Shown piece after piece: positions 3,692-56,517 of a stretch of DNA of 64,000 bases; within the stretch, counting starts at the first letter, position 1, and every line of letters starts with the position of its first letter. The notes beneath the pieces are model-generated. The model did no database searches and was not told the DNA's origin. It saw only the letters and a list, made by a program, of their open reading frames with translations. The position numbers and the translations under genes are program-made. The stretch is from Minisyncoccota bacterium. GTDB taxonomy: Bacteria; Patescibacteriota; Minisyncoccia; UBA6257; GWB1-50-10. Location: assembly GCA_041917695.1 (NCBI GenBank), contig JAYRXE010000037.1, positions 130,155-194,154 on the forward strand, read 5' to 3'.

Positions 3692-5407
3692 ATGATTTCT
3701 CTGCCTGACAATCAGGTGAAGGATATGCTTCTGCGCGCCGGCGTCGTGGATGAAAAATCCTTTGAGCTGGTCAAAACTGAAGCGCTCCGCAAAAACCAAA
3801 ACCCTATAGACGTTTTGATCTCTGAGGGAGTCTTTACGCGCGATTATTTCTACCTTTTGCTGGCTAAAACGCTTGGCCTCGAGCGGGTGAATTTGGGCAC
3901 TATCCAAATCGATGAGGCGGTGATGGAAAAAATCCCCGAAGAAGTGGCGCGGCAGAAGAAGGTAATCGTATTCGGTCGCGATGCGGACGGGGCGTATCTT
4001 GCCGCCATGGAGGACCCCACCGATCTCGAAACGATTGATTTCTTGAAACGGCGCCTGAATGGCTTCGTAAAAGCCTACCTCGCCACTGAAGAGGATTTGA
4101 ATCGCGGATACCTCCTCTATAACAAACAGCTTACTCAGGATTTCAAGAAAATTATCGAGGAGAGCGTCCAGGAAACCCTGCGGCTGAAGGCGCGCGGGGC
4201 CTTGAAGGAAGTAGGGGAGGATTTGCCGGTCGTCGCCATCATCGACAACCTGCTTTCCTACGCCATCTCTTCGCGGAGCTCCGATGTCCATATCGAGGCG
4301 CTTGACGATGCGGTGTATGTGCGGTTTCGCATCGACGGCGTGCTCCATGAGATCATCACCATGCCGAAAGAAATCCGCCCCGCCATCGTGGCCCGCATTA
4401 AAATCCTTTCGAGCCTCCGGGTAGACGAACATACGCATCCGCAAGACGGCCGCTTCAGGTATGCCGTGGGGGACCAGTTCGTCGACATCCGCGTTTCCAT
4501 CTTGCCGACATTCTACGGGGAGAAGGTTGAGATGCGTTTGCTCGCGGATTCCCAGCGCCCGCTGTCGTTCCAATCGTTGGGTATGTTTGATGACTCCATC
4601 AAATTACTCCAAGAAGGCATTTCAAAGACCTACGGCATGGTATTGGTGTGCGGTCCGACTGGTTCGGGTAAATCCACCACACTCTATTCGGTTTTGAACG
4701 TCTTGAACCATCCCGAAGTCAATATTGTGACGATTGAAGATCCCATCGAATACGATATGCGGTATGTGAACCAAATTCAGGTGAATCCGGCCGCCGGCAT
4801 CACTTTTGCTTCGGGACTGCGGTCTATTCTCCGCCAGGATCCCAACATTATCATGGTGGGCGAGGTGCGCGACGGCGAAACGGCGAATATTGCCGTACAA
4901 GCAGCACTTACCGGCCATTTAGTGCTTTCGAGCTTGCACACGAATGACGCGCCGACTGCCATACCGCGTCTCGTCGACATGGGCATTCCGCCCTTTCTCG
5001 TTTCCGCCGTGTTGAATGTCGTCTCGGCGCAACGCCTCGCCCGGCGGATTTGTCGCGATTGCATTGAATCGTATACGCCGCCGGCGGAGATTCGGGATGC
5101 GATTCTCCACGAAGTCGAAGGATTGAAGACGGAAGGAGACGCGACCCGATTGCCGAAAGTCTTTTATCGCGGAAAGGGGTGCCGGACGTGCAGTTTCACG
5201 GGCTTTTTGGGGCGGATGACCATTTGCGAAGTCATGCCTATTTCGGAAGCGATTCGCAAGCTTATCATCGATCCGCACTTCGACCTCGACGAACTCCGTT
5301 TACTCGCCCGAAAGGAGGGGATGGTCACGATGATCGAAGACGGGCTTCGGAAGGTTGAATTGGGCCTTACGACCATCGAGGAGGTCTTTCGCATTATCAG
5401 AGAATAA
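3692..5407 (+). CDS. pilB: Type IV pilus assembly ATPase PilB/GspE family
   Basis: Walker A VLVCGPTGSGKSTT, the GspE N-terminal domain, and the CRDC...CRTC tetracysteine motif. The ORF track starts at a TTG at 3680; the ATG at 3692 is preferred. Confidence 0.85.
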   Translation: MISLPDNQVKDMLLRAGVVDEKSFELVKTEALRKNQNPIDVLISEGVFTRDYFYLLLAKTLGLERVNLGTIQIDEAVMEKIPEEVARQKKVIVFGRDADGAYLAAMEDPTDLETIDFLKRRLNGFVKAYLATEEDLNRGYLLYNKQLTQDFKKIIEESVQETLRLKARGALKEVGEDLPVVAIIDNLLSYAISSRSSDVHIEALDDAVYVRFRIDGVLHEIITMPKEIRPAIVARIKILSSLRVDEHTHPQDGRFRYAVGDQFVDIRVSILPTFYGEKVEMRLLADSQRPLSFQSLGMFDDSIKLLQEGISKTYGMVLVCGPTGSGKSTTLYSVLNVLNHPEVNIVTIEDPIEYDMRYVNQIQVNPAAGITFASGLRSILRQDPNIIMVGEVRDGETANIAVQAALTGHLVLSSLHTNDAPTAIPRLVDMGIPPFLVSAVLNVVSAQRLARRICRDCIESYTPPAEIRDAILHEVEGLKTEGDATRLPKVFYRGKGCRTCSFTGFLGRMTICEVMPISEAIRKLIIDPHFDLDELRLLARKEGMVTMIEDGLRKVELGLTTIEEVFRIIRE

Positions 5408-9037: not shown

Positions 9038-10518
9038 CGGATTGCGAAAATAGCGGCCTCCTTCGGTATGATTGCGGGTCTTCCGGGCAAGACGTAGCGG
9101 ATATTTTTTTCGTTCTGCTTTTCAAGCGTAAATGAGTCGGTGAGAAACATGACGGTCTGCGCGGGCATCGGGATGCCACGCACGTCAACGCCTCCCGCTT
9201 CGACAATCACATATTTGGGTATCTGCGGGGGGAGCGCATTTACTGAGCGGGCAATTGCCGCGTAGTCGGTTGTAAATGCCCCTGCGGTTTCTGGCGATTC
9301 TCCCCATTCGATGAAATACGCATAATAGGCTTGCACCATCACCATAGCGAAAAAGAGGCCGATGAAGGCCGCGCACGCTTTCGTATGGATATTTTTATTG
9401 AGCAGCCATTCATGAATCGCGACCCCCGCCCATGCGGCGAGAATGATTGCGGAAGGAATCATAAGGATTGCCCGAAGCGCATGAGGAATACCTTCGCTTG
9501 AAACAACGACGGGAAGCGCCGCGACGATAAGGCCCGAGAGGAGAAATATGAACGGGTTCCTCTCCTTTTCCTGACCGCGGCGGGCGAGCTTTGCAATGCC
9601 GAGAAGGAGCGCAGCGGCAAAGAGTATCGCCACGGGCCAGAAAAATTCCGGCGCGCCGGGCAGGTTGTGCCTCCAATTCATGTCCCCGCGGAAGAAAAAC
9701 ATCCCGAACGTGTCAGCTCCGTTCTTTAAGAGGGCCACAGCGGGATTTTCCGTTGAAAAAATTGAAACTTGCGAAGTCCGTCCGAAGAAATCGCCGGGAT
9801 GGCCCGCAAAATAAACGAGGAGCGGCACCGAGACCAGCGCGGCGCCGGCAATGAAAATACTTGCAATGCGCGCCATGTTTTTCGTGCCGATTTCTTTTTT
9901 CCATGCGAAAAAGACGGTGAGTGGGATAAGCGGGGTCGCGCGATATGCGATATATGAATGGAATCCCAATCCATAGACGATTCCCGCCAAAAGCGGAATG
10001 AATACTTTCCCTTTTCGGATAGCAAGAAGGAGAAGCCATGACCCCCACACGAAGAAGAAGGGAGCCATGATGGCGCGGAAGCCGATGCGGGAGAAATTTA
10101 TATGCCAAAAACTCGTTGCAAGGAAAAAGGCGGCGACGAGACCGATGGCGACCGATTTTTTTTCTCCTGAACGGCGAAATAGCTCTCGAGCCAGAAAAAA
10201 GACGCCCAAGACGGTGAAAAATCCAAAAATCGCGCTGGGGAGGCGCAACATCCACGGTTCAGGGGTTCCTTCCGGGGGGGTGAGTCCGCGGAGAAACGCC
10301 GCTTGAATGTTTATAAACAGGCCTTCCCGCCCGTTATTTTCGGGATAGAAAACTTTTCCCCGCAAAAACCCGCCGTTTTGGAGGGTCTCTTCGGCATTCG
10401 AGCCGTTCATCGCTTCGTCCGGGTAGAGTCCCGGCGGGAGATCGGCAATTCGGTAGAATCTAAAAAAGAGCGCAATCCCCAATACCAAAAAAAGAAGGAG
10501 GATTTCTCGAGGCTTCAT
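9034..10518 (-). CDS. GT-C family membrane glycosyltransferase (GT39/PMT/ArnT-like)
   Basis: A polytopic membrane protein with an N-terminal YRIADLPPGLYPDEAMNG (DE motif in the first loop) and many TM helices. It is convergent with the pilin gene. Confidence 0.6.
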   Translation of the reverse strand: MKPREILLLFLVLGIALFFRFYRIADLPPGLYPDEAMNGSNAEETLQNGGFLRGKVFYPENNGREGLFINIQAAFLRGLTPPEGTPEPWMLRLPSAIFGFFTVLGVFFLARELFRRSGEKKSVAIGLVAAFFLATSFWHINFSRIGFRAIMAPFFFVWGSWLLLLAIRKGKVFIPLLAGIVYGLGFHSYIAYRATPLIPLTVFFAWKKEIGTKNMARIASIFIAGAALVSVPLLVYFAGHPGDFFGRTSQVSIFSTENPAVALLKNGADTFGMFFFRGDMNWRHNLPGAPEFFWPVAILFAAALLLGIAKLARRGQEKERNPFIFLLSGLIVAALPVVVSSEGIPHALRAILMIPSAIILAAWAGVAIHEWLLNKNIHTKACAAFIGLFFAMVMVQAYYAYFIEWGESPETAGAFTTDYAAIARSVNALPPQIPKYVIVEAGGVDVRGIPMPAQTVMFLTDSFTLEKQNEKNIRYVLPGRPAIIPKEAAIFAIR

Positions 10519-16311: not shown

Positions 16312-16367
16312 CACGCTTCAGAACTGGGTATACGCTTACACCGTTTCTTTAACATTGCAGGAATAGC

Positions 16368-16443
16368 TCAGTTGGGAGAGCATCTGCTTCCGCGTAAGCA
16401 GAGGGTCGGTGGTTCGAGTCCATTTTCCTGCTCAAGGGGGAGA
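16368..16443 (+). tRNA. tRNA with a 3-nt-expanded anticodon arm; likely Arg(CCG)-like, identity uncertain
   Basis: Acceptor GCAGGAA/TTCCTGC, D-arm GCTCAGTTGGGAGAGC and T-arm GGTGG-TTCGAGT-CCATT are canonical. The anticodon arm TCTGC-TTCCGCGTAA-GCAGA has a 10-nt loop, or a 7-bp stem with a 6-nt loop. Confidence 0.7.
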
Positions 16444-24108: not shown

Positions 24109-24134
24109 GAGGCGCTGTTGCGATGGAGGGGGTC

Positions 24135-24268
24135 GGGGAGGAACGGGAAATGAATTCCTCCCCGTCTGGGAGAGTATTGAGAACCGTGGGTTCTCAAGGA
24201 GTTCCGTTTTCGGAACGACGGGAAGTGGCGGAAGAGATAAAAACCCTTCAGGGGTTTTTATCTTTTTG
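24135..24268 (+). ncRNA. Candidate structured small RNA (four consecutive hairpins in a non-coding gap)
   Basis: GGGGAGGA-N13-TCCTCCCC (24135-63), TGAGAACC-GTG-GGTTCTCA (24178-96), GTTCCG-TTTT-CGGAAC (24201-16), and a terminator-like AAACCC-TTCA-GGGGTTT with T-run (24239-68). Confidence 0.3.
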
Positions 24269-24345: not shown

Positions 24346-24714
24346 GTGGAAACATTTACCGCAAATAATCGAAAATTCACTGTAGGAGATGAGCTAAAAG
24401 TATGGCATAAAGGCGCGTGGTATAAGGCGATTTCTATCTATTTGAGGCCGCGGAAGCTCTATTATCCGAAATCTATTTACGAAGATGGCTTGCGCTTGGG
24501 GCGGGATCTTAATTTGATTGAGGAGACTGCTAACGGTTGGGCTCGATTCGAAGACAGAGGAGATCAATTTATGGTGGTGAAAATAATTGCCCGATTGTCC
24601 GTGGATGAAAGATTAAAGGAGGTCCCTGAATGCCCCGAAGAATTGTCTTGCAGCAAATATGCTACGCTTATTCATAGCACTGAAGAGGAATACGATCCTT
24701 TGCGACTGGAATAG
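24346..24714 (+). CDS. Hypothetical protein (lower-GC gene with strong SD AGGAGG and GTG start)
   Basis: AAAGGAGGGCTGCGTG gives SD spacing of 5 nt. Composition is lower in GC than the flanking ribosomal genes, and no motif was recognised. Confidence 0.4.
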   Translation: METFTANNRKFTVGDELKVWHKGAWYKAISIYLRPRKLYYPKSIYEDGLRLGRDLNLIEETANGWARFEDRGDQFMVVKIIARLSVDERLKEVPECPEELSCSKYATLIHSTEEEYDPLRLE

Positions 24715-24938: not shown

Positions 24939-25091
24939 ATGGCACCGAAAAAAAGAAAGACGACGAAGAAAGCCGTGAAGAAGACCAAGCGTCCTGCACG
25001 GAAAGCGACCAAAAAAGCGGCTCCGAAGCGTAAAGCAACTTCGAAGCGCAAAACGACCAAGAAGTCGTCTGCAAAGAAGCGCCGGAAATAA
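24939..25091 (+). CDS. Histone H1-like / lysine-rich basic nucleoid-associated protein (about 50 aa)
   Basis: MAPKKRKTTKKAVKKTKRPARKATKKAAPKRKATSKRKTTKKSSAKKRRK consists of Ala/Lys/Pro repeats typical of bacterial H1-like proteins. The ATG at 24939 is preferred over the track start at 24891. Confidence 0.5.
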   Translation: MAPKKRKTTKKAVKKTKRPARKATKKAAPKRKATSKRKTTKKSSAKKRRK

Positions 25092-31022: not shown

Positions 31023-32101
31023 TGCTTACCACTCTTTTTGTCATCATCGCGCTTTCCGTCCTCATTTTCATCCACGAGCTGGGGCATTTCAGCGCGGCCA
31101 AGATTTTCCGGGTGAAAGTGCTCGAATTCGGCATGGGATTTCCGCCAAAGCTGTGGGGCAAACGGAAGGGAGAAACGGAATACACCATTAACGCGCTGCC
31201 CTTCGGCGGATTCGTGCGCATTTTGGGCGAGGACGGCGAAGAGAAAGAAACCGCCGAAGAGCACGCCGAGGAAGAGAAGGACCCGAAGCGGAGTTTCGTT
31301 TTCCAGCCCCTTTGGAAGAAAGTGGTGATGCTCGGTGCGGGCGTTTTCATGAATTTCGTCCTGGGTTGGATTCTGATGAGTATCGTGTTCATGGCAGGTA
31401 TTCCCGAGCACCTTATCATTACCGGAACGCAACCGGATTCACCGGCGGCGGAAAAGGGATTGCAGACCGGAGATATCGTCATTTCAGCGGTCTCAGGCGG
31501 AGAAGCGCTCCGCGACCCGATCAAAGCGAATGATTTTATCGGGTTCACCGACCGCGCGAAGGGCGCGACGATGAAAATCGAAATCGACCGGAAGGGGGAG
31601 CGAATCGAAGCGGAGATGTTTGTGCGGGAAAATCCGCCTGCCGGAGAGGGGGCGCTCGGCGTGTATCTCGCAGACGGCGGTTTCCCGCGCCAGTCGTTCT
31701 TCGCGTCGCTCGGAAAAGGCGCGGAGGAGACCTGGACCATCGCGCGCCTTGTTTTTGACGGATTCGTTGATCTTGTGAAAAGGGTGTTCACGCATCCCGG
31801 GAGTGCCACGGAAAACCTTGCGGGGCCGGTCGGCATCGTCGTCGTCGCAAAAGAGACGTCCGCGCTCGGCATTCCGTATTTCCTCCAGCTCATGGCGCTT
31901 ATTTCGATAAACCTCGGTGTTTTGAACCTGCTTCCCGTGCCGGCCTTGGACGGGGGGCGTATTCTCCTTGCACTCGTTGAGCGCGCGAAGGGTTCCCCGG
32001 TTTCACGCAACGTCCAAATTGGCATCAATGCCGTAGGGTTCATCCTTCTCATCGGACTTATGGTGCTTGTCACCGTGCAGGACGTCCGGCGCTTGTTTTA
32101 A
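31022..32101 (+). CDS. rseP: RIP zinc metalloprotease RseP (site-2 protease) with PDZ domain
   Basis: IFIHELGHFSAAKIF (HExxH), ...LPFGGFVRILGED..., a PDZ-like middle region, and C-terminal LNLLPVPALDGG. Confidence 0.85.
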   Translation: MLTTLFVIIALSVLIFIHELGHFSAAKIFRVKVLEFGMGFPPKLWGKRKGETEYTINALPFGGFVRILGEDGEEKETAEEHAEEEKDPKRSFVFQPLWKKVVMLGAGVFMNFVLGWILMSIVFMAGIPEHLIITGTQPDSPAAEKGLQTGDIVISAVSGGEALRDPIKANDFIGFTDRAKGATMKIEIDRKGERIEAEMFVRENPPAGEGALGVYLADGGFPRQSFFASLGKGAEETWTIARLVFDGFVDLVKRVFTHPGSATENLAGPVGIVVVAKETSALGIPYFLQLMALISINLGVLNLLPVPALDGGRILLALVERAKGSPVSRNVQIGINAVGFILLIGLMVLVTVQDVRRLF

Positions 32102-32120
32102 GGCTTAAAAGGCAGAAATA

Positions 32121-32149
32121 TTGACTTTTTAATAAAATAGTTATATAAT
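32121..32149 (+). promoter_or_regulatory. Canonical sigma70-type promoter (TTGACT-N17-TATAAT) driving islet gene 32208-32822
   Basis: -35 TTGACT at 32121-26, a 17-nt spacer, and -10 TATAAT at 32144-49. Confidence 0.55.
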
Positions 32150-32156
32150 ATTATTA

Positions 32157-32172
32157 TCCTGAAAAATCAGGA
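32157..32172 (+). promoter_or_regulatory. Perfect palindrome TCCTGA-AAAA-TCAGGA at the predicted transcript 5' end (operator or 5' hairpin); near-identical copy at 45962-45977
   Basis: A 6-bp inverted repeat lies 7 nt after the -10 box. It is followed by AAAGAAAGGA...ATG. The same arrangement occurs upstream of the gene at 46014. Confidence 0.5.
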
Positions 32173-32207
32173 AAACTTAACAAATTTAAAAGAAAGGACT
32201 GACTGTT

Positions 32208-32822
32208 ATGTCACATGACAATGACAACACTCAGCTGACGCTCTCTGAAGTACAGGGACCGTTAAATCAACTAAACGTAAACTTAACCGGCCCCGAGGGC
32301 AGGAGATGGCTATCGGCGCTCAACAGATTCCTACGCAAGGAGGATACCGCCTGGGATGTACGGAATTTCGACGTATGGAAAAGCGTGAAATTAGGAACCT
32401 ACAAGAATATCTCAGAATTAAAAAAAGCGCTTATGGATTCAGGCTTCAAGTTAATAAGCGATGATAGAACAAATCTCCTTCTTGATGAGATGGATTTTTC
32501 TGAAGTCGCAACTATAATCGAAGCTGATTTAATCCTTGTTTCAGTAAAAGAGCTTGGATTCAAAAAGGGCGCAACCAGTGAAGAAATTTTGGAGAGAGCT
32601 CGTGAGCTTGGTCTCGAATTATGTCCAGCTGAAGCAGCTCCCCAGTTGCAACTTCAGTTTCCAAACCAGGTAGAAAATCCCTATATGTATGTACGTTCCA
32701 AGAGTGGTGATTTGAGTTGTTTTCATATTACGAATTCCATGATATTTGCTGCACTTCCCACTAGTCTGCAAGATTTTTGGAGCGCTAGCGGGTACTTTGT
32801 TTTTGTCCGTCTTAGAAAATAG
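32208..32822 (+). CDS. Hypothetical protein encoded on low-GC islet 1
   Basis: A 204-aa ORF in an AT-rich stretch (about 40% GC by eye) between rseP and proS, with an AAGGA SD 9 nt upstream of the ATG. It shows no known motif. A KKG..S..E.L motif recurs twice. Confidence 0.45.
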   Translation: MSHDNDNTQLTLSEVQGPLNQLNVNLTGPEGRRWLSALNRFLRKEDTAWDVRNFDVWKSVKLGTYKNISELKKALMDSGFKLISDDRTNLLLDEMDFSEVATIIEADLILVSVKELGFKKGATSEEILERARELGLELCPAEAAPQLQLQFPNQVENPYMYVRSKSGDLSCFHITNSMIFAALPTSLQDFWSASGYFVFVRLRK

Positions 32823-32844
32823 ACTCTTTTTCTATTTTTATTAA

Positions 32845-32870
32845 AAGCCCCTTTTAGGGGCTTGTTTATT
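32845..32870 (+). terminator. Rho-independent terminator ending islet 1
   Basis: AAGCCCC-TTTTA-GGGGCTT followed by GTTTATTT. Confidence 0.7.
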
Positions 32871-45924: not shown

Positions 45925-45953
45925 TTGCATAATTAGAAAATTTGTGGTATACT
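45925..45953 (+). promoter_or_regulatory. Canonical sigma70-type promoter (TTGCAT-N17-TATACT) driving islet gene 46014-46991
   Basis: -35 TTGCAT at 45925-30, a 17-nt spacer, and -10 TATACT at 45948-53. Confidence 0.55.
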
Positions 45954-45961
45954 TAAAACAG

Positions 45962-45977
45962 TCCTGAAAAATCGGGA
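45962..45977 (+). promoter_or_regulatory. Palindrome TCCTGA-AAAA-TCGGGA, second copy of the element at 32157-32172
   Basis: It lies 8 nt after the -10 box, with the same downstream AAAGAAAGGA...ATG context as islet 1. Confidence 0.5.
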
Positions 45978-46013
45978 TTTTTTAATAATTCAAAAAGAAA
46001 GGAAAAAACTGCT

Positions 46014-46991
46014 ATGAAAGACGAGCAGAACACCTTCAAGCAAACCGGGAAATTTGTTTCCACGATTTTGGAAAATTTTCCAAAATTGAACGAAGTAGAA
46101 ATCCAATACTGGATTGAACATCCATTGGAAATTAAGGAGATCATAAAAAGATTCTCCAATGTCCCCATTCTCCATATATCCCAAAACCCTTCCTTAACGG
46201 AAAGAATTATGAAGGGAAAATATACGGATATGGATCCTCGTATTACGGAAGAAACTTTTCCCATCCTCATCCCACATGATTATCGCGTTCAGTATGAGTT
46301 GTTTCATTTTGACATGGTTATGCCGTCCCAATTGGTTGTTGAAAAAATGACCCAGAAGGGATGCCGGCCCGCCACGCTCATAGAATTGCTCGAGTTTGGG
46401 AGATCTAAACCGGAAATTCAAAAGAAATTTCCCGTTATAGCCCTTGGCTCGGCAATAAAAAAGGGGGACGGAGAGTGCAGGGTTCCGTTTTGTGATAATT
46501 GCGGTTCAAGAATTACCCTCGCTTCGTATGGTGCCCAGTGGAATAAGGCCTGCCGTTTTCTCGCTGTGTATGATGGAAGGAAAATTCTTCATATTTCCGC
46601 CGGGCTTTCTGCTGAAGAAAGAATTAAAGCTGGAAGGTATGATTTGGTAGGCTTCTATGTTAAAGAAGCTGTTTTAAAGGCTCATCCGGTAGTGAAAGAC
46701 TATGAGGCTGAATACGAGCTTTTTCACTTCAAGAAGGAAATCGAGTATTACCCCGACGCGGTCGAGAGAATGTATAAGAAAGGATTTAGGCCGGCGAATG
46801 TGCATGAGTTGTTGGCGCTCGGGACTGCGTATCCCCACCTTCAAAAGAAATTCCCCATTATAGAAATTGAAGGGGACGAACTAGAATACCTTACTTTAGA
46901 TTATGACTCGGCTAAGGGCCGCTCTTTGCTTACGCGCCGCCTTGATCGAGAGTGGTACGGTATACTTCGTATTCTTGGAGTACGTATGTAA
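46014..46991 (+). CDS. Hypothetical protein on low-GC islet 2 (internal tandem duplication of about 95 aa; Cys cluster)
   Basis: Repeats DYRVQYELFHFDMV...KGCRPATLIELLEFG...IQKKFPVIALGS and DYEAEYELFHFKKE...KGFRPANVHELLALG...LQKKFPIIEIEG. CRVPFCDNCGSR...C lies between them. Confidence 0.45.
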   Translation: MKDEQNTFKQTGKFVSTILENFPKLNEVEIQYWIEHPLEIKEIIKRFSNVPILHISQNPSLTERIMKGKYTDMDPRITEETFPILIPHDYRVQYELFHFDMVMPSQLVVEKMTQKGCRPATLIELLEFGRSKPEIQKKFPVIALGSAIKKGDGECRVPFCDNCGSRITLASYGAQWNKACRFLAVYDGRKILHISAGLSAEERIKAGRYDLVGFYVKEAVLKAHPVVKDYEAEYELFHFKKEIEYYPDAVERMYKKGFRPANVHELLALGTAYPHLQKKFPIIEIEGDELEYLTLDYDSAKGRSLLTRRLDREWYGILRILGVRM

Positions 46992-47005
46992 GAGATAGGT
47001 TTAGT

Positions 47006-47036
47006 AACCCCCCGCTTGTGCGGGGGGTTATTTTTG
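47006..47036 (+). terminator. Rho-independent terminator ending islet 2
   Basis: CCCCCCGC-TTGTG-GCGGGGGG followed by TTATTTTT. Confidence 0.8.
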
Positions 47037-47040
47037 GCAC

Positions 47041-47081
47041 TTGACACCCTTGAGTGCTGATTTATAATTCAAGCACTAAAA
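47041..47081 (+). promoter_or_regulatory. hrcA promoter (TTGACA-N16-TATAAT) overlapped by a CIRCE-like inverted repeat
   Basis: -35 at 47041-46 and -10 at 47063-68. The inverted repeat is TTGAGTGCT (47050-58) ... AGCACTAA (47072-79). Confidence 0.5.
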
Positions 47082-54414: not shown

Positions 54415-54513
54415 GCGTCAAAGAATAGTATAGAAGGGGGAGGAGAGCAAGAAAATTTGACTTTACAACTGTTTTTCGGGATAGTAATGGCAGAAATTTA
54501 AAAGGAGATTTAT

Positions 54514-54762
54514 ATGGAAACACTCGCCTATGTTTTTATCGGGCTTTTTATTCTTGCTGCGCTTGCAGCTTTTTATTTCTCTCGCGTGGCTCACAAACAG
54601 GTCAAAGAGCTGGAATCTCAAAACGCCCTTATCCTTGATATATGGCACGTGGTTACGCATAAGGGGCCTGAAGAGGCGCATGAGGATGTTAAACAAATCC
54701 TTTCAGCCGATTCCAGTCTGTTCAAAACCCACGAAACGGAGGATGCGCATGAGGAAAAATGA
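54514..54762 (+). CDS. Small membrane protein (82 aa), hypothetical
   Basis: The TM helix YVFIGLFILAALAAFYF. Upstream lie TTGACT (54457-62) and SD AAAGGAG 6 nt before the ATG. Confidence 0.35.
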   Translation: METLAYVFIGLFILAALAAFYFSRVAHKQVKELESQNALILDIWHVVTHKGPEEAHEDVKQILSADSSLFKTHETEDAHEEK

Positions 54763-54994
54763 TGCAAATCAATTTCTGAACGAAAATGGCGCCATTCCCG
54801 AAGGCGTTGCTCAAAGCGTCCGGGAATTTTTTGAAAGCTATGTTACTTTGAAACGCGCTCTCGATGAACGGGGGAGGAATGCGTTCCGGACTCAGAGGAA
54901 ACTGAGAAAATTATGCTGGGAAATCTCGCGCGTCTTGCAAATGCCTTTTGCCGACGTGCGAGAGTGTATGGAAAATATTTTTAAAGCAATCTGA
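54743..54994 (+). CDS. Small soluble protein (about 84 aa), hypothetical; overlaps the previous ORF end
   Basis: MRMRKNDANQFLNENG...FRTQRKLRKLCWEISRV... in the frame of track ORF 54530-54994. Confidence 0.3.
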   Translation: MRMRKNDANQFLNENGAIPEGVAQSVREFFESYVTLKRALDERGRNAFRTQRKLRKLCWEISRVLQMPFADVRECMENIFKAI

Positions 54995-55263: not shown

Positions 55264-55334
55264 TTGCGGGATCGTCTAACGGTAGGACGTTTGGCTCTGA
55301 ACCAAAAAATTGGGGTTCGATTCCCTGTCCCGCA
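55264..55334 (+). tRNA. tRNA-Gln (anticodon CTG)
   Basis: Acceptor TGCGGGA/TCCCGCA with U1:A72, a 3-bp D-stem GTC/GAC, anticodon arm TTTGG-CTCTGAA-CCAAA (CUG), T-arm TGGGG-TTCGATT-CCCTG, and discriminator G. Confidence 0.75.
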
Positions 55335-55485
55335 GCAAAAACAGAAACGCCGGCTTAATGTCGGCGTTTCTGGTTTGGTGTAGAATGGAGGGGAATCGAA
55401 CGGAAAGGGGGTCGGGGAAACGGGAGTTTCCCTGTGGCGGATGCCCTGAAACCGCTGGGTTTCAGAGAGCGAAGCGACGTGAGAC

Positions 55486-55500
55486 CTCCCTGTCCCGCAG
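55486..55500 (+). repeat. 15-nt exact direct repeat of the tRNA-Gln 3' end (TCCCTGTCCCGCAGC), putative att-site remnant
   Basis: Identical to 55321-55335 (T-stem 3' half, acceptor 3' strand and discriminator). It lies 165 nt downstream of the tRNA, just before the low-GC insert. Confidence 0.55.
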
Positions 55501-55551
55501 CAAAGTTGAGAGACGCTCGAGGTCTATTAGGGTAATAAAAAATTTTTAGCT

Positions 55552-56517
55552 ATGGCTGGATACGATCAAACCATAATAGTTAGAGCAGTTTTTGAAAAAG
55601 AAGCTAGGAAATTTTTTGGTTTCCTTCAGAATATAGGAAGAAGATATGCTAGACCGGTAAGAATTAATTATCGTTATTTGAAAAGAGGTCGTTTCCATGT
55701 GGTGGTAGACGGAGGCTCAGGTGGAATAGATGCTCTTTTTCAAGAACTTGTAATTAATAGGGGGTTATACTATTACGCTTGCACTTTACAAAATAAAAGA
55801 ATAATTATTGATGGTGTTGTTGTTCCAATATTTAAGCAATTAATTGACTATAGATTCCTTAATTCCCAGGCGAGATTTTTAAGAAAACATATTCTAGGTA
55901 AACACGCACAAACAGATTTTGTACCAAGTTATATAAAAAATAAATTTGGAAATTCGTTTGAAATTCTCTTTAGAAAATGGGATTTAAAATCCATTTCTAA
56001 CAAAGAGTATGTAGTGGAGCTAGACGCGCTCTTAAACGACTTTCTTTTAGAGAAGCTTGGGCACAAGCCAGGCGGGAAAAGTAAGGATTTTTATAACTTA
56101 GTACGAGACGCAAAAAAAGTTTTTCCTTTAGGAGGAGATGTAGAAACTGCTTTTCGAAAAACCCATGATTTAAGAACTCGGTTTTTGCATAGACGAATAG
56201 ATGCTTCAAGGGAAACTGTAAATATAGAAGAAATTTCCATTATTTTATATAACTATTTTAGTTATTTAGATGACTTTGAATATTCACAGCGTTTTAAATA
56301 TATTATGAAACGCGGTAAAAAATATAAGCGATATAAGTACGGCGAGGCTATTTGGAAAACGAAAGGTCATGAGATTTTTGAGGAATCAAAAGTAGCTCAT
56401 AATCCTTGCTCTGACTGTGATGTTCTGAAGGGTTTCTATCATGTTGAGGGTTGCGATATCGAACGGTGTCCCGCTTGCGGAGGTCAATTGTTATCATGCG
56501 GCCACAGATCTTTTTAA
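55552..56517 (+). CDS. Hypothetical protein on tRNA-Gln-adjacent low-GC islet; C-terminal Cys/His zinc-ribbon-like motif
   Basis: A 321-aa protein, AT-rich and Lys/Tyr/Phe-rich. The C-terminus reads [36 protein letters not shown], and a central Rx4H-like RTRFLHRR is present. No transposase or integrase motif was seen. Confidence 0.4.

Follow-up and report, generated by a model that had tools for sequence, protein, structure and literature searches.

Two low-GC islets with a shared promoter, hairpin and leader module encode predicted C-type-lectin-fold proteins in a Parcubacteria-type genome

What is a gene with a leader of the Shine–Dalgarno (SD) type doing in a genome whose 16S rRNA carries no anti-SD sequence, and where did it come from? 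The question is raised by a 64-kb stretch of DNA from a Minisyncoccota bacterium (hereafter the window, in whose coordinates all positions are given), which holds two AT-rich islets. Islet 1 is flanked by rseP and proS, and islet 2 by a pilin-like gene and hrcA. In both, a promoter, a short hairpin and an AU-rich leader with an SD-like purine block precede one open reading frame (ORF). The reading that we favour, and hold to be fairly probable, is that each islet would be a transcription unit with a single gene, complete in itself and acquired horizontally, placed between housekeeping operons. Its 5' stem-loop would protect the leadered mRNA, and the leader that the two islets share would be a donor-type cassette under selection.

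The elements of islet 1 all lie on the forward strand. The sigma-70 promoter at 32121-32149 consists of TTGACT (32121-32126), a 17-nt spacer and TATAAT (32144-32149), with 11 consensus matches out of 12 in a promoter scan. The perfect palindrome TCCTGA-AAAA-TCAGGA (TCCTGAAAAATCAGGA, 32157-32172) begins 7 nt past the -10 box, at the predicted +1. It is followed by an AU-rich, unstructured leader (32173-32207) with the SD-like block AAAAGAAAGGA at 32188-32198, the GGA of which is separated from the ATG by 9 nt. ORF1 (32208-32822; 204 amino acids (aa); GC content 0.424; GC at third codon positions (GC3) 0.41) ends ahead of an intrinsic terminator at 32845-32870, composed of AAGCCCC-TTTTA-GGGGCTT (32845-32863) and a T-run. 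An earlier reading of the locus, made from the DNA letters without database searches (the sequence-only reading), had described the promoter, the palindrome, the AAGGA motif and the terminator in this way, and all four were borne out.

Islet 2, also on the forward strand, is built from the same parts. Its promoter (45925-45953) has TTGCAT at 45925-45930, a 17-nt spacer and the extended -10 box TGgTATACT at 45945-45953; the -35 box matches the consensus at only 3 of 6 positions, and the promoter scan was therefore silent there. The hairpin TCCTGA-AAAA-TCGGGA (TCCTGAAAAATCGGGA, 45962-45977) begins 8 nt past the -10 box; it forms one G.U pair as RNA, and its stem can be extended to 8 bp over 45960-45979. 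The AU-rich leader (45978-46013) carries AAAAGAAAGGA at 45993-46003, 10 nt ahead of the ATG at 46014. ORF2 (46014-46991; 325 aa; GC 0.433) is followed by an intrinsic terminator at 47005-47036 (TAACCCCCCGC-TTGT-GCGGGGGGTTA and a T-run), directly 5' of the hrcA promoter.

The upstream regions 32121-32207 and 45925-46013 share one order of blocks, namely promoter, hairpin TCCTGAAAAATC(A/G)GGA, 15-nt AU-rich spacer, AAAAGAAAGGA and ATG. The distance from the hairpin to AAAAGAAAGGA is exactly 15 nt in both islets, and the ATG follows 9-10 nt past the purine block. The alignment of 32120-32210 with 45925-46016, which the sequence-only reading had proposed, gave the same blocks in the same order with a column identity of 74%. 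This identity was distributed block-wise: the -35 box, the -10 box, the hairpin (15/16), the purine block (11/11) and ACTGnTATG were kept, and the spacers between them matched at only about half of the positions by our own count. With at most one mismatch allowed, the hairpin 16-mer occurred twice in the window and in none of 100 shuffles, and the same counts were obtained for the 42-nt composite of hairpin, N15 and AAAAGAAAGGA, indicating that the recurrence is not due to chance. Furthermore, each module drives one low-GC ORF, which closes at a terminator.

The window belongs to a Parcubacteria-type genome of the Candidate Phyla Radiation (CPR); the nearest homologues of its ProS are annotated as Minisyncoccia, Brennerbacteria or Jorgensenbacteria. 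The 16S rRNA (860-2373) has the 3' end GGATCAATTAACTT (about 2355-2373), in longer form ...GTGGATCAATTAACTT, also read as GGAUCAAUUAACUU. It contains no CCTCC, and ATTAA (AUUAA in the RNA) occupies the anti-SD position instead. The sequence-only reading had stated this correctly; it is not new, since the loss of the anti-SD in a Parcubacteria subgroup has been published (PMC9297842). The accompanying statement that native genes mostly lack an SD also held: SD-like motifs were found upstream of 6 of 50 native-GC ORFs against a background of 14%, i.e. with no enrichment. A -10-like hexamer at most 14 nt from the start codon was present in 8 of the 50 against a background of 1%, and the native genes with such a hexamer close to the start look leaderless, as judged from this spacing. 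In many genes that come first in their operon, the ATG lies 6-10 nt past a TATAAT-like box, for example at 10518(-), 10549, 13333, 16646, 28482(-), 45081(-), about 2601 and about 25157, and the stop and start codons of downstream operon genes often overlap. The 16S gene is not followed by a 23S gene, and a response-regulator gene starts near 2601.

A strong SD-like AAGGA(G) was found ahead of four low-GC ORFs of the window, starting at 24346, 32208, 46014 and about 54516 (the last by the upstream-ATG reading). The leaders showed no convincing complementarity to the 3' end of the host 16S rRNA, and because its tail is without CCTCC, SD:anti-SD pairing is impossible in this host. Pairing of the leader with the altered tail was considered and rejected; by eye, at most five A-U pairs could be formed, far from the start codon.

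The origin of islet 1 was approached through composition and gene order. The GC content was 0.40-0.43 in 400-nt windows over 32001-32800, compared with 0.56-0.61 in the flanks and 0.536 in the whole window, and the GC3 of native genes was about 0.55-0.77 versus that of ORF1 given above. The islet was as AT-rich as had been claimed, but the background of about 58% assumed for it had to be corrected to a window average of 53.6%. The gene order mreB-holB-frr-rseP-proS-mreB-mreC is kept in the closest relatives, whose ProS is 73% (L069) or 71% (L070-L073) identical; the comparison with them covers the site of islet 1 alone. The gap between rseP and proS is only 83-96 bp in these relatives and 812 bp in the window, and islet 1 is therefore an insertion. 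Homology to the relatives picks up right past the islet 1 terminator (...tttatttgc...ttctgataggattgag). Because it resumes at the 3' edge of the terminator, this terminator was probably that of the ancestral rseP, in which case the insert would extend over about 32102-32840. The foreign, horizontally acquired character proposed for islet 1 is supported by its absence from the spacer of the relatives, its low GC content and its SD-type leader in an SD-less host.

A different islet of 1.35 kb occupies the rseP-proS gap of a further relative, L074 (ProS 66% identical; positions 2650-4000 of L074), with a GC content of 0.37 versus 0.55 for the locus. It contains a helix-turn-helix gene on the minus strand and an unrelated ORF of about 195 aa behind TTGCAT-N17-TATAAT. 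A different perfect palindrome, ACAGTA-N6-TACTGT (ACAGTAaaattaTACTGT), lies 6 nt past this -10 box, at the predicted +1. The possibility that the L074 ORF is a member of the family of ORF1 or of ORF2 (family 1 and family 2) was dropped, as the comparison showed no relationship. Because L074 carries a different low-GC islet at the same place, the rseP-proS spacer is a site at which accessory genes have landed repeatedly in this clade. As separate observations, the contig of a third strain (L194, region 1-101) loses homology exactly at window position 32336 and, upstream of it, continues as unrelated GC-rich sequence with a GAF-like peptide, and another strain (L001) has a cluster of five single-nucleotide polymorphisms at 32338-32348, the same point. 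The break in L194 is either a recombination breakpoint or rearrangement, or an assembly chimera.

Searches of Pfam and PHROGs with the two proteins gave nothing significant. The AlphaFold2 (AF2) models of ORF1 (pLDDT 77.7) and ORF2 (pLDDT 73.4) matched TvpA and Mtd, and both products were assigned to the C-type-lectin folds, ORF2 with two tandem domains. According to the models, the fold is combined with a C-terminal variable region (VR) in both. Further domain types listed for the encoded products were FGE/EgtB-type domains and animal C-type lectin domains. The structure prediction that had been suggested for the 204-aa protein thus replaces its former description as an unknown protein: both ORFs encode predicted C-type-lectin-fold proteins of families that elsewhere are variable proteins of diversity-generating retroelements (DGRs).

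By word-indexed homology search, ORF1 had 12 relatives and ORF2 had 72, and the named sources were annotated as Patescibacteria or Parcubacteria. With a full profile search, the ORF1 family comprised 6,594 cluster representatives (1,632 at E <= 1e-30), mostly of about 200 aa and some in tandem. The single-domain homologues of ORF2, which are DGR targets elsewhere, have about 190-200 aa. ORF1 and ORF2 gave no significant match in direct BLASTP, and their family profiles were aligned collinearly by hhalign with a probability of just 6% (E = 0.006); the homology of the two families would therefore be one of modelled fold and not of sequence. No further paralogues of either ORF were found in the window.

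Both families contain, as the cassettes around their genes confirm, genuine DGR variable proteins on three contigs that are probably of CPR origin. In L064, the 3' end of a family-2 gene is repeated over 140 nt behind it, bAvd and an RVT_1 gene come next, and all mismatches between the template repeat (TR) and the VR are at TR adenines. A family-2 cassette of the same layout was found in L195, with adenine-only TR/VR mismatches and with reverse transcriptase (RT) and Avd present. L067 has two tandem family-1 genes with one VR each and one common TR beside an Avd-like ORF, and the mismatches are again adenine-specific. Previous work has documented that VR domains systematically have the C-Lec fold and that a DGR clade occurs in CPR only (PMC8144416).

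No repeat of the 3' part of either ORF was found elsewhere in the window, and tblastn of the L064 RT and Avd against it gave nothing below E = 0.08. Because the window is without TR, RT and Avd, its two genes are locally DGR-less homologues, members of DGR-target families that do not seem to be targets here. Moreover, no adenine-linked hypervariation was seen between strains in the assemblies compared. ORF2 was 100% identical in the independent assemblies read, including a 680-kb NCBI contig, and ORF1 had few substitutions, including synonymous ones, which were not adenine-specific. Compared with known DGR variable proteins (Mtd of Bordetella phage, TvpA of Treponema and the targets of the CPR-restricted DGR clade 2), both ORFs are alike in the C-type-lectin fold. 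Their families are alike in that the VR occupies the very C-terminal end (...W...rFVFVRRK and W...CRFLAVRK) and in being diversified, in L064, L067 and L195, by adjoining TR-Avd-RT cassettes. The ORFs differ in that the window has no TR, Avd or RT, and in showing no hypervariation between strains. In addition, ORF1 has lost conserved family residues, e.g. the MEP motif, and ORF2 is a fusion of two domains.

The module was searched for outside the window by exact-pattern scans, in line with the wider motif search that had been recommended. In the genome and metagenome collections, 54 matches were obtained, of which 53 were attributed to chance and one was real. The chance matches comprised the 26 in 185,579 GTDB species genomes, which came from unrelated phyla and were mostly inside ORFs, and 27 of the 28 in metagenomes. 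The real one was L045, a CPR-like contig with a ProS 46% identical to that of the window, which has an rseP-proS-mreB block too and whose housekeeping genes are without SD motifs. There the module follows proS and consists of TTGACA, a 16-nt spacer, TATCAT, 8 nt, TCCTGAAAAATCAGGA, 8 nt, GAAAGGAGG and then 5 nt up to the ATG of an unrelated ORF of 122 aa, behind which lies a terminator. By these matches, the module is present ahead of three different ORFs, in no fewer than two distant lineages that use SDs little or not at all. In L002, which uses SDs, the family-1 homologue has a strong 5'-proximal stem-loop of its own (z = -4.0), different from that of the islets, with AAAAGAAAGGAG after it. 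Rfam 15, searched at gathering and permissive thresholds, yielded no family for the hairpin element, the best match (24 bits versus a cut-off of 80) being at chance level. In L045, the gap between frr and rseP (3840-4320, minus strand) also contains, twice, a GC-rich hairpin element (aaaaaaaGRCCGGGCGCGCTTGGTGGCGCCCGGG...). About 150 nt of non-coding DNA come after either copy, and these elements may be small RNAs.

The function of the palindrome was considered next to that of the leader. The hairpin starts 7-8 nt past the -10 box in both islets and in L045, and the ATG of the leaderless host genes lies 6-10 nt past theirs; because the two distances agree, the mRNA should begin with the hairpin. 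As RNA, the 16-mer folded with -5.8 to -6.5 kcal/mol in three contexts (-6.5 in islet 1, with a 6-bp stem and a 4-nt loop), and the leader downstream of it was unpaired in the centroid structure. The A-to-G variant of islet 2 keeps a G.U pair on the transcribed strand only and breaks the DNA dyad, and the AAAA loop is on the coding strand in 3/3 copies. Flanking bases lengthen the stem in islet 2 and in L045, with different sequences in the two. These three features, together with the stem-loop of the L002 homologue, favour a function on the transcribed strand, and we lean towards a palindrome that would work as a 5'-terminal mRNA stem-loop rather than as an operator. A role as terminator of the upstream gene was rejected; a T-run follows the hairpin in islet 2 only, and not in islet 1 or L045.

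For the stem-loop, the following course is proposed. Transcription would start about 7-8 nt past the -10 box of the sigma-70-type promoter, as the promoter geometry suggests, and nucleotides 1-16 of the mRNA, by the computed fold, would form the 6-bp stem and AAAA loop at its extreme 5' end. By analogy with ompA and aprE, the stem-loop may shield the leadered mRNA from 5'-end-dependent decay; most other host mRNAs would begin at AUG, where the ribosome would cover them. The unstructured AU-rich spacer of 15 nt and the purine block AAAAGAAAGGA would come next, 9-10 nt ahead of the AUG. This block would be an SD in SD-using relatives, the L002 homologue having AAAAGAAAGGAG in the same place. It is unable to pair with the host 16S tail and would here be at best an unstructured A-rich ribosome landing site; the AAGGA block may be such a landing pad or a mere inheritance from an SD-using donor. 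The products, on the AF2 models, would be small ligand-binding proteins of C-type-lectin fold. The common leader would be a donor-type expression cassette held by selection, with its functional blocks kept and its spacers diverged.

Several points weigh against this interpretation. The 5'-terminal position of the hairpin is a prediction from promoter geometry. Within the 6-bp stem, the three independent copies show zero true compensatory changes, and covariation therefore does not prove an RNA structure. With ProS just 46% identical, the near-identity of stem and loop would be explained at least as well by a protein that recognises the sequence, in DNA or in RNA, as by a generic stabiliser. 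Translation of SD-led ORFs by ribosomes without an anti-SD is itself putative. Finally, the searches covered 64 kb of a genome of roughly 680 kb, which leaves room for a remote DGR or for more copies of the module. We also entertained, as a long shot, that the invariant 16-nt element UCCUGAAAAAUCAGGA at the 5' end of leadered accessory mRNAs is a sequence-specific signal of Parcubacteria that use SDs little or not at all, by which a dedicated factor takes hold of the mRNA to bring in ribosomes or to control its translation. If this were true, the UCCUGAAAAAUCAGGA signal would serve mRNAs that are neither leaderless nor SD-capable, and it would be conserved out to a lineage with 46% ProS identity.

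Recognition at the DNA level would make the palindrome an operator, in which a dimeric helix-turn-helix repressor bound to TCCTGA-N4-TCAGGA at +1 to +16 co-represses both lectin-fold genes. A perfect 6-N4-6 dyad was noted over the predicted transcription start of L045 and of the two islets, whose structurally related genes have it in common, and its stem and loop are essentially invariant at an identity of just 46% between the ProS proteins. The different palindrome at the same position in L074 is likewise expected if there is one repressor per element. However, a regulator gene adjoining either islet was not found, and there are just two sites in 64 kb. The non-palindromic centre points the same way in each of the three copies, the sole variant breaks the DNA dyad and keeps the RNA pairing, the distance from the -10 box varies by no more than 1 nt, a precision that an operator would not require, and the gene downstream in L045 is unrelated. 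We regard an operator as unlikely, and as the main rival of the stem-loop. The protein families suggest another view, in which the two ORFs are active remote targets of a DGR elsewhere in the genome, retrohoming explains their low GC content and fast evolution, and the terminator hairpins double as target-recognition hairpins. Both families are indeed genuine DGR targets in L064, L067 and L195, a GC-rich hairpin follows each ORF, and the inter-strain substitutions of ORF1 are denser at its end (7 in the last 100 nt versus 5 in the preceding approximately 330 nt). Such remote targeting is nevertheless quite improbable: the low GC content extends over whole ORFs and promoters and not the VR alone, TR, RT and Avd are missing from the 64 kb, ORF2 is identical in the assemblies read, and the strain differences of ORF1 are few, partly synonymous and partly off adenines.

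The sequence-only reading had thought the unit perhaps phage-derived, and phage-derived morons, or mobile-element remnants with their own promoter and terminator, would have the observed form, since a promoter-ORF-terminator unit between operons is moron-like. In addition, members of family 1 are present on two contigs with a viral classification, and islet 1 is surrounded by an 11-nt inverted repeat (I5: 32127-32137, 32836-32846) and an 11-nt direct repeat (32088/32857). These repeats, tried as a transposon signature, are short, AT-rich matches within chance expectation and were rejected as such. One of the "viral" contigs, L067, resembles a cellular DGR cassette. Viral contigs were scanned three times, for the hairpin alone or together with the SD block, and gave no copy in promoter context (in the hairpin-only scan, among the 120 matches listed), and PHROG matches were none. 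Integrase, transposase and phage genes were not found at either site, and both islets lie between cellular genes and not within a phage genome. A phage origin is not supported by these results, and the moron or mobile-element reading is very improbable. On the whole, the observation made in the sequence-only reading was confirmed and its interpretation stood in part; the foreign unit and the recurrence of the module held, and the phage origin and the unknown protein did not.

Known systems offer partial parallels. The 5' untranslated region hairpin of Escherichia coli ompA and the leaders of Bacillus subtilis aprE and ermC are 5'-terminal stem-loops that stabilise mRNA. The module is like them in having a short hairpin at the predicted transcript start and then an unstructured leader with an SD-like element; it differs in that sequence as well as structure is conserved across distant lineages. 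In aprE, the SD and ribosome binding add stability, which may not apply to a host without an anti-SD. Putative mobile promoters, that is, homologous upstream regions before non-homologous genes, were reportedly described by Matus-Garcia, Nijveen and van Passel in NAR in 2012. The likeness is that one promoter-leader cassette stands before ORF1, ORF2 and the unrelated 122-aa ORF of L045; the difference is that identity is block-wise in functional elements and not uniform, with two copies per 64 kb. Because identity is confined to functional blocks, long-term selection would be indicated rather than recent copying. Compared with canonical SD initiation, the purine-rich AAGGA 9-10 nt ahead of the AUG is similar, as is AAAAGAAAGGAG of the SD-using L002 homologue, but the host differs in its 16S tail GGAUCAAUUAACUU and in the lack of SD enrichment in its genes.

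Each component described here is known. The combination of an SD-type cassette and a conserved 5' hairpin in an anti-SD-less host is modestly interesting; it is a natural experiment and not a new class of system, and it offers a natural test of the role of an SD-type leader where the ribosome has no anti-SD. New elements are the identity of the cargo (C-type-lectin fold, DGR-target families), the relatives' evidence for islet 1 as an insertion and the 16-nt leader element in a distant lineage. Two islets that were called unknown become candidate lectin-fold binding proteins of the DGR type, brought in as ready-made transcription units. They provide a handle on gene expression in CPR and on the exchange of its surface or ligand-binding repertoire. 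Moreover, Rfam (by the Rfam 15 search) has no entry for the 16-nt 5' hairpin, a candidate cis-element, and the rseP-proS spacer emerges as a site of repeated accessory-gene insertion in the clade.

Other elements of the window were recorded as well. Low-GC small ORFs at 24346-24714 and about 54459-54994 have SD-like leaders and no hairpin; the leader of the former carries GAAAGGAGG, and that of the latter reads TTGACT-N17-TAGTAAT ... AAAAGGAGA-N5-ATG. A lysine-rich ORF of about 50 aa lies at about 24941-25090. A G-rich element some 75 nt long (GGGGGTCGGGGA..AACGGGA) occurs at about 24125-24205 and again at about 55392-55470, in each case just 5' of another low-GC islet. The hairpins of the two copies are TGAGAACC-GTGG-GTTCTCA and CTGAAACC-GCTG-GGTTTCAG, with differences that are apparently compensatory. 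This element had no Rfam match and may be a small RNA or an islet-associated element. The 3' end ccctgtcccgcagcaaa (55323-55339) of a tRNA-Gln gene (55265-55336) is repeated at 55488-55504, and after the repeat stands a 321-aa ORF (55552-56517; GC 0.34) with no Pfam match; from its layout, the region from the tRNA to 56517 looks like the remnant of an integration at the tRNA gene. At 16357-16433, ARAGORN reported a tRNA with a 4-base anticodon loop reading (cgcg) and assigned it no identity; the Rfam tRNA model matched there at 55 bits. The hrcA promoter (TTGACA-N16-TATAAT) downstream of islet 2 lies at 47034-47078, inside a CIRCE-like inverted repeat (TTGAGTGCTGA...TTCAAGCACTAA).

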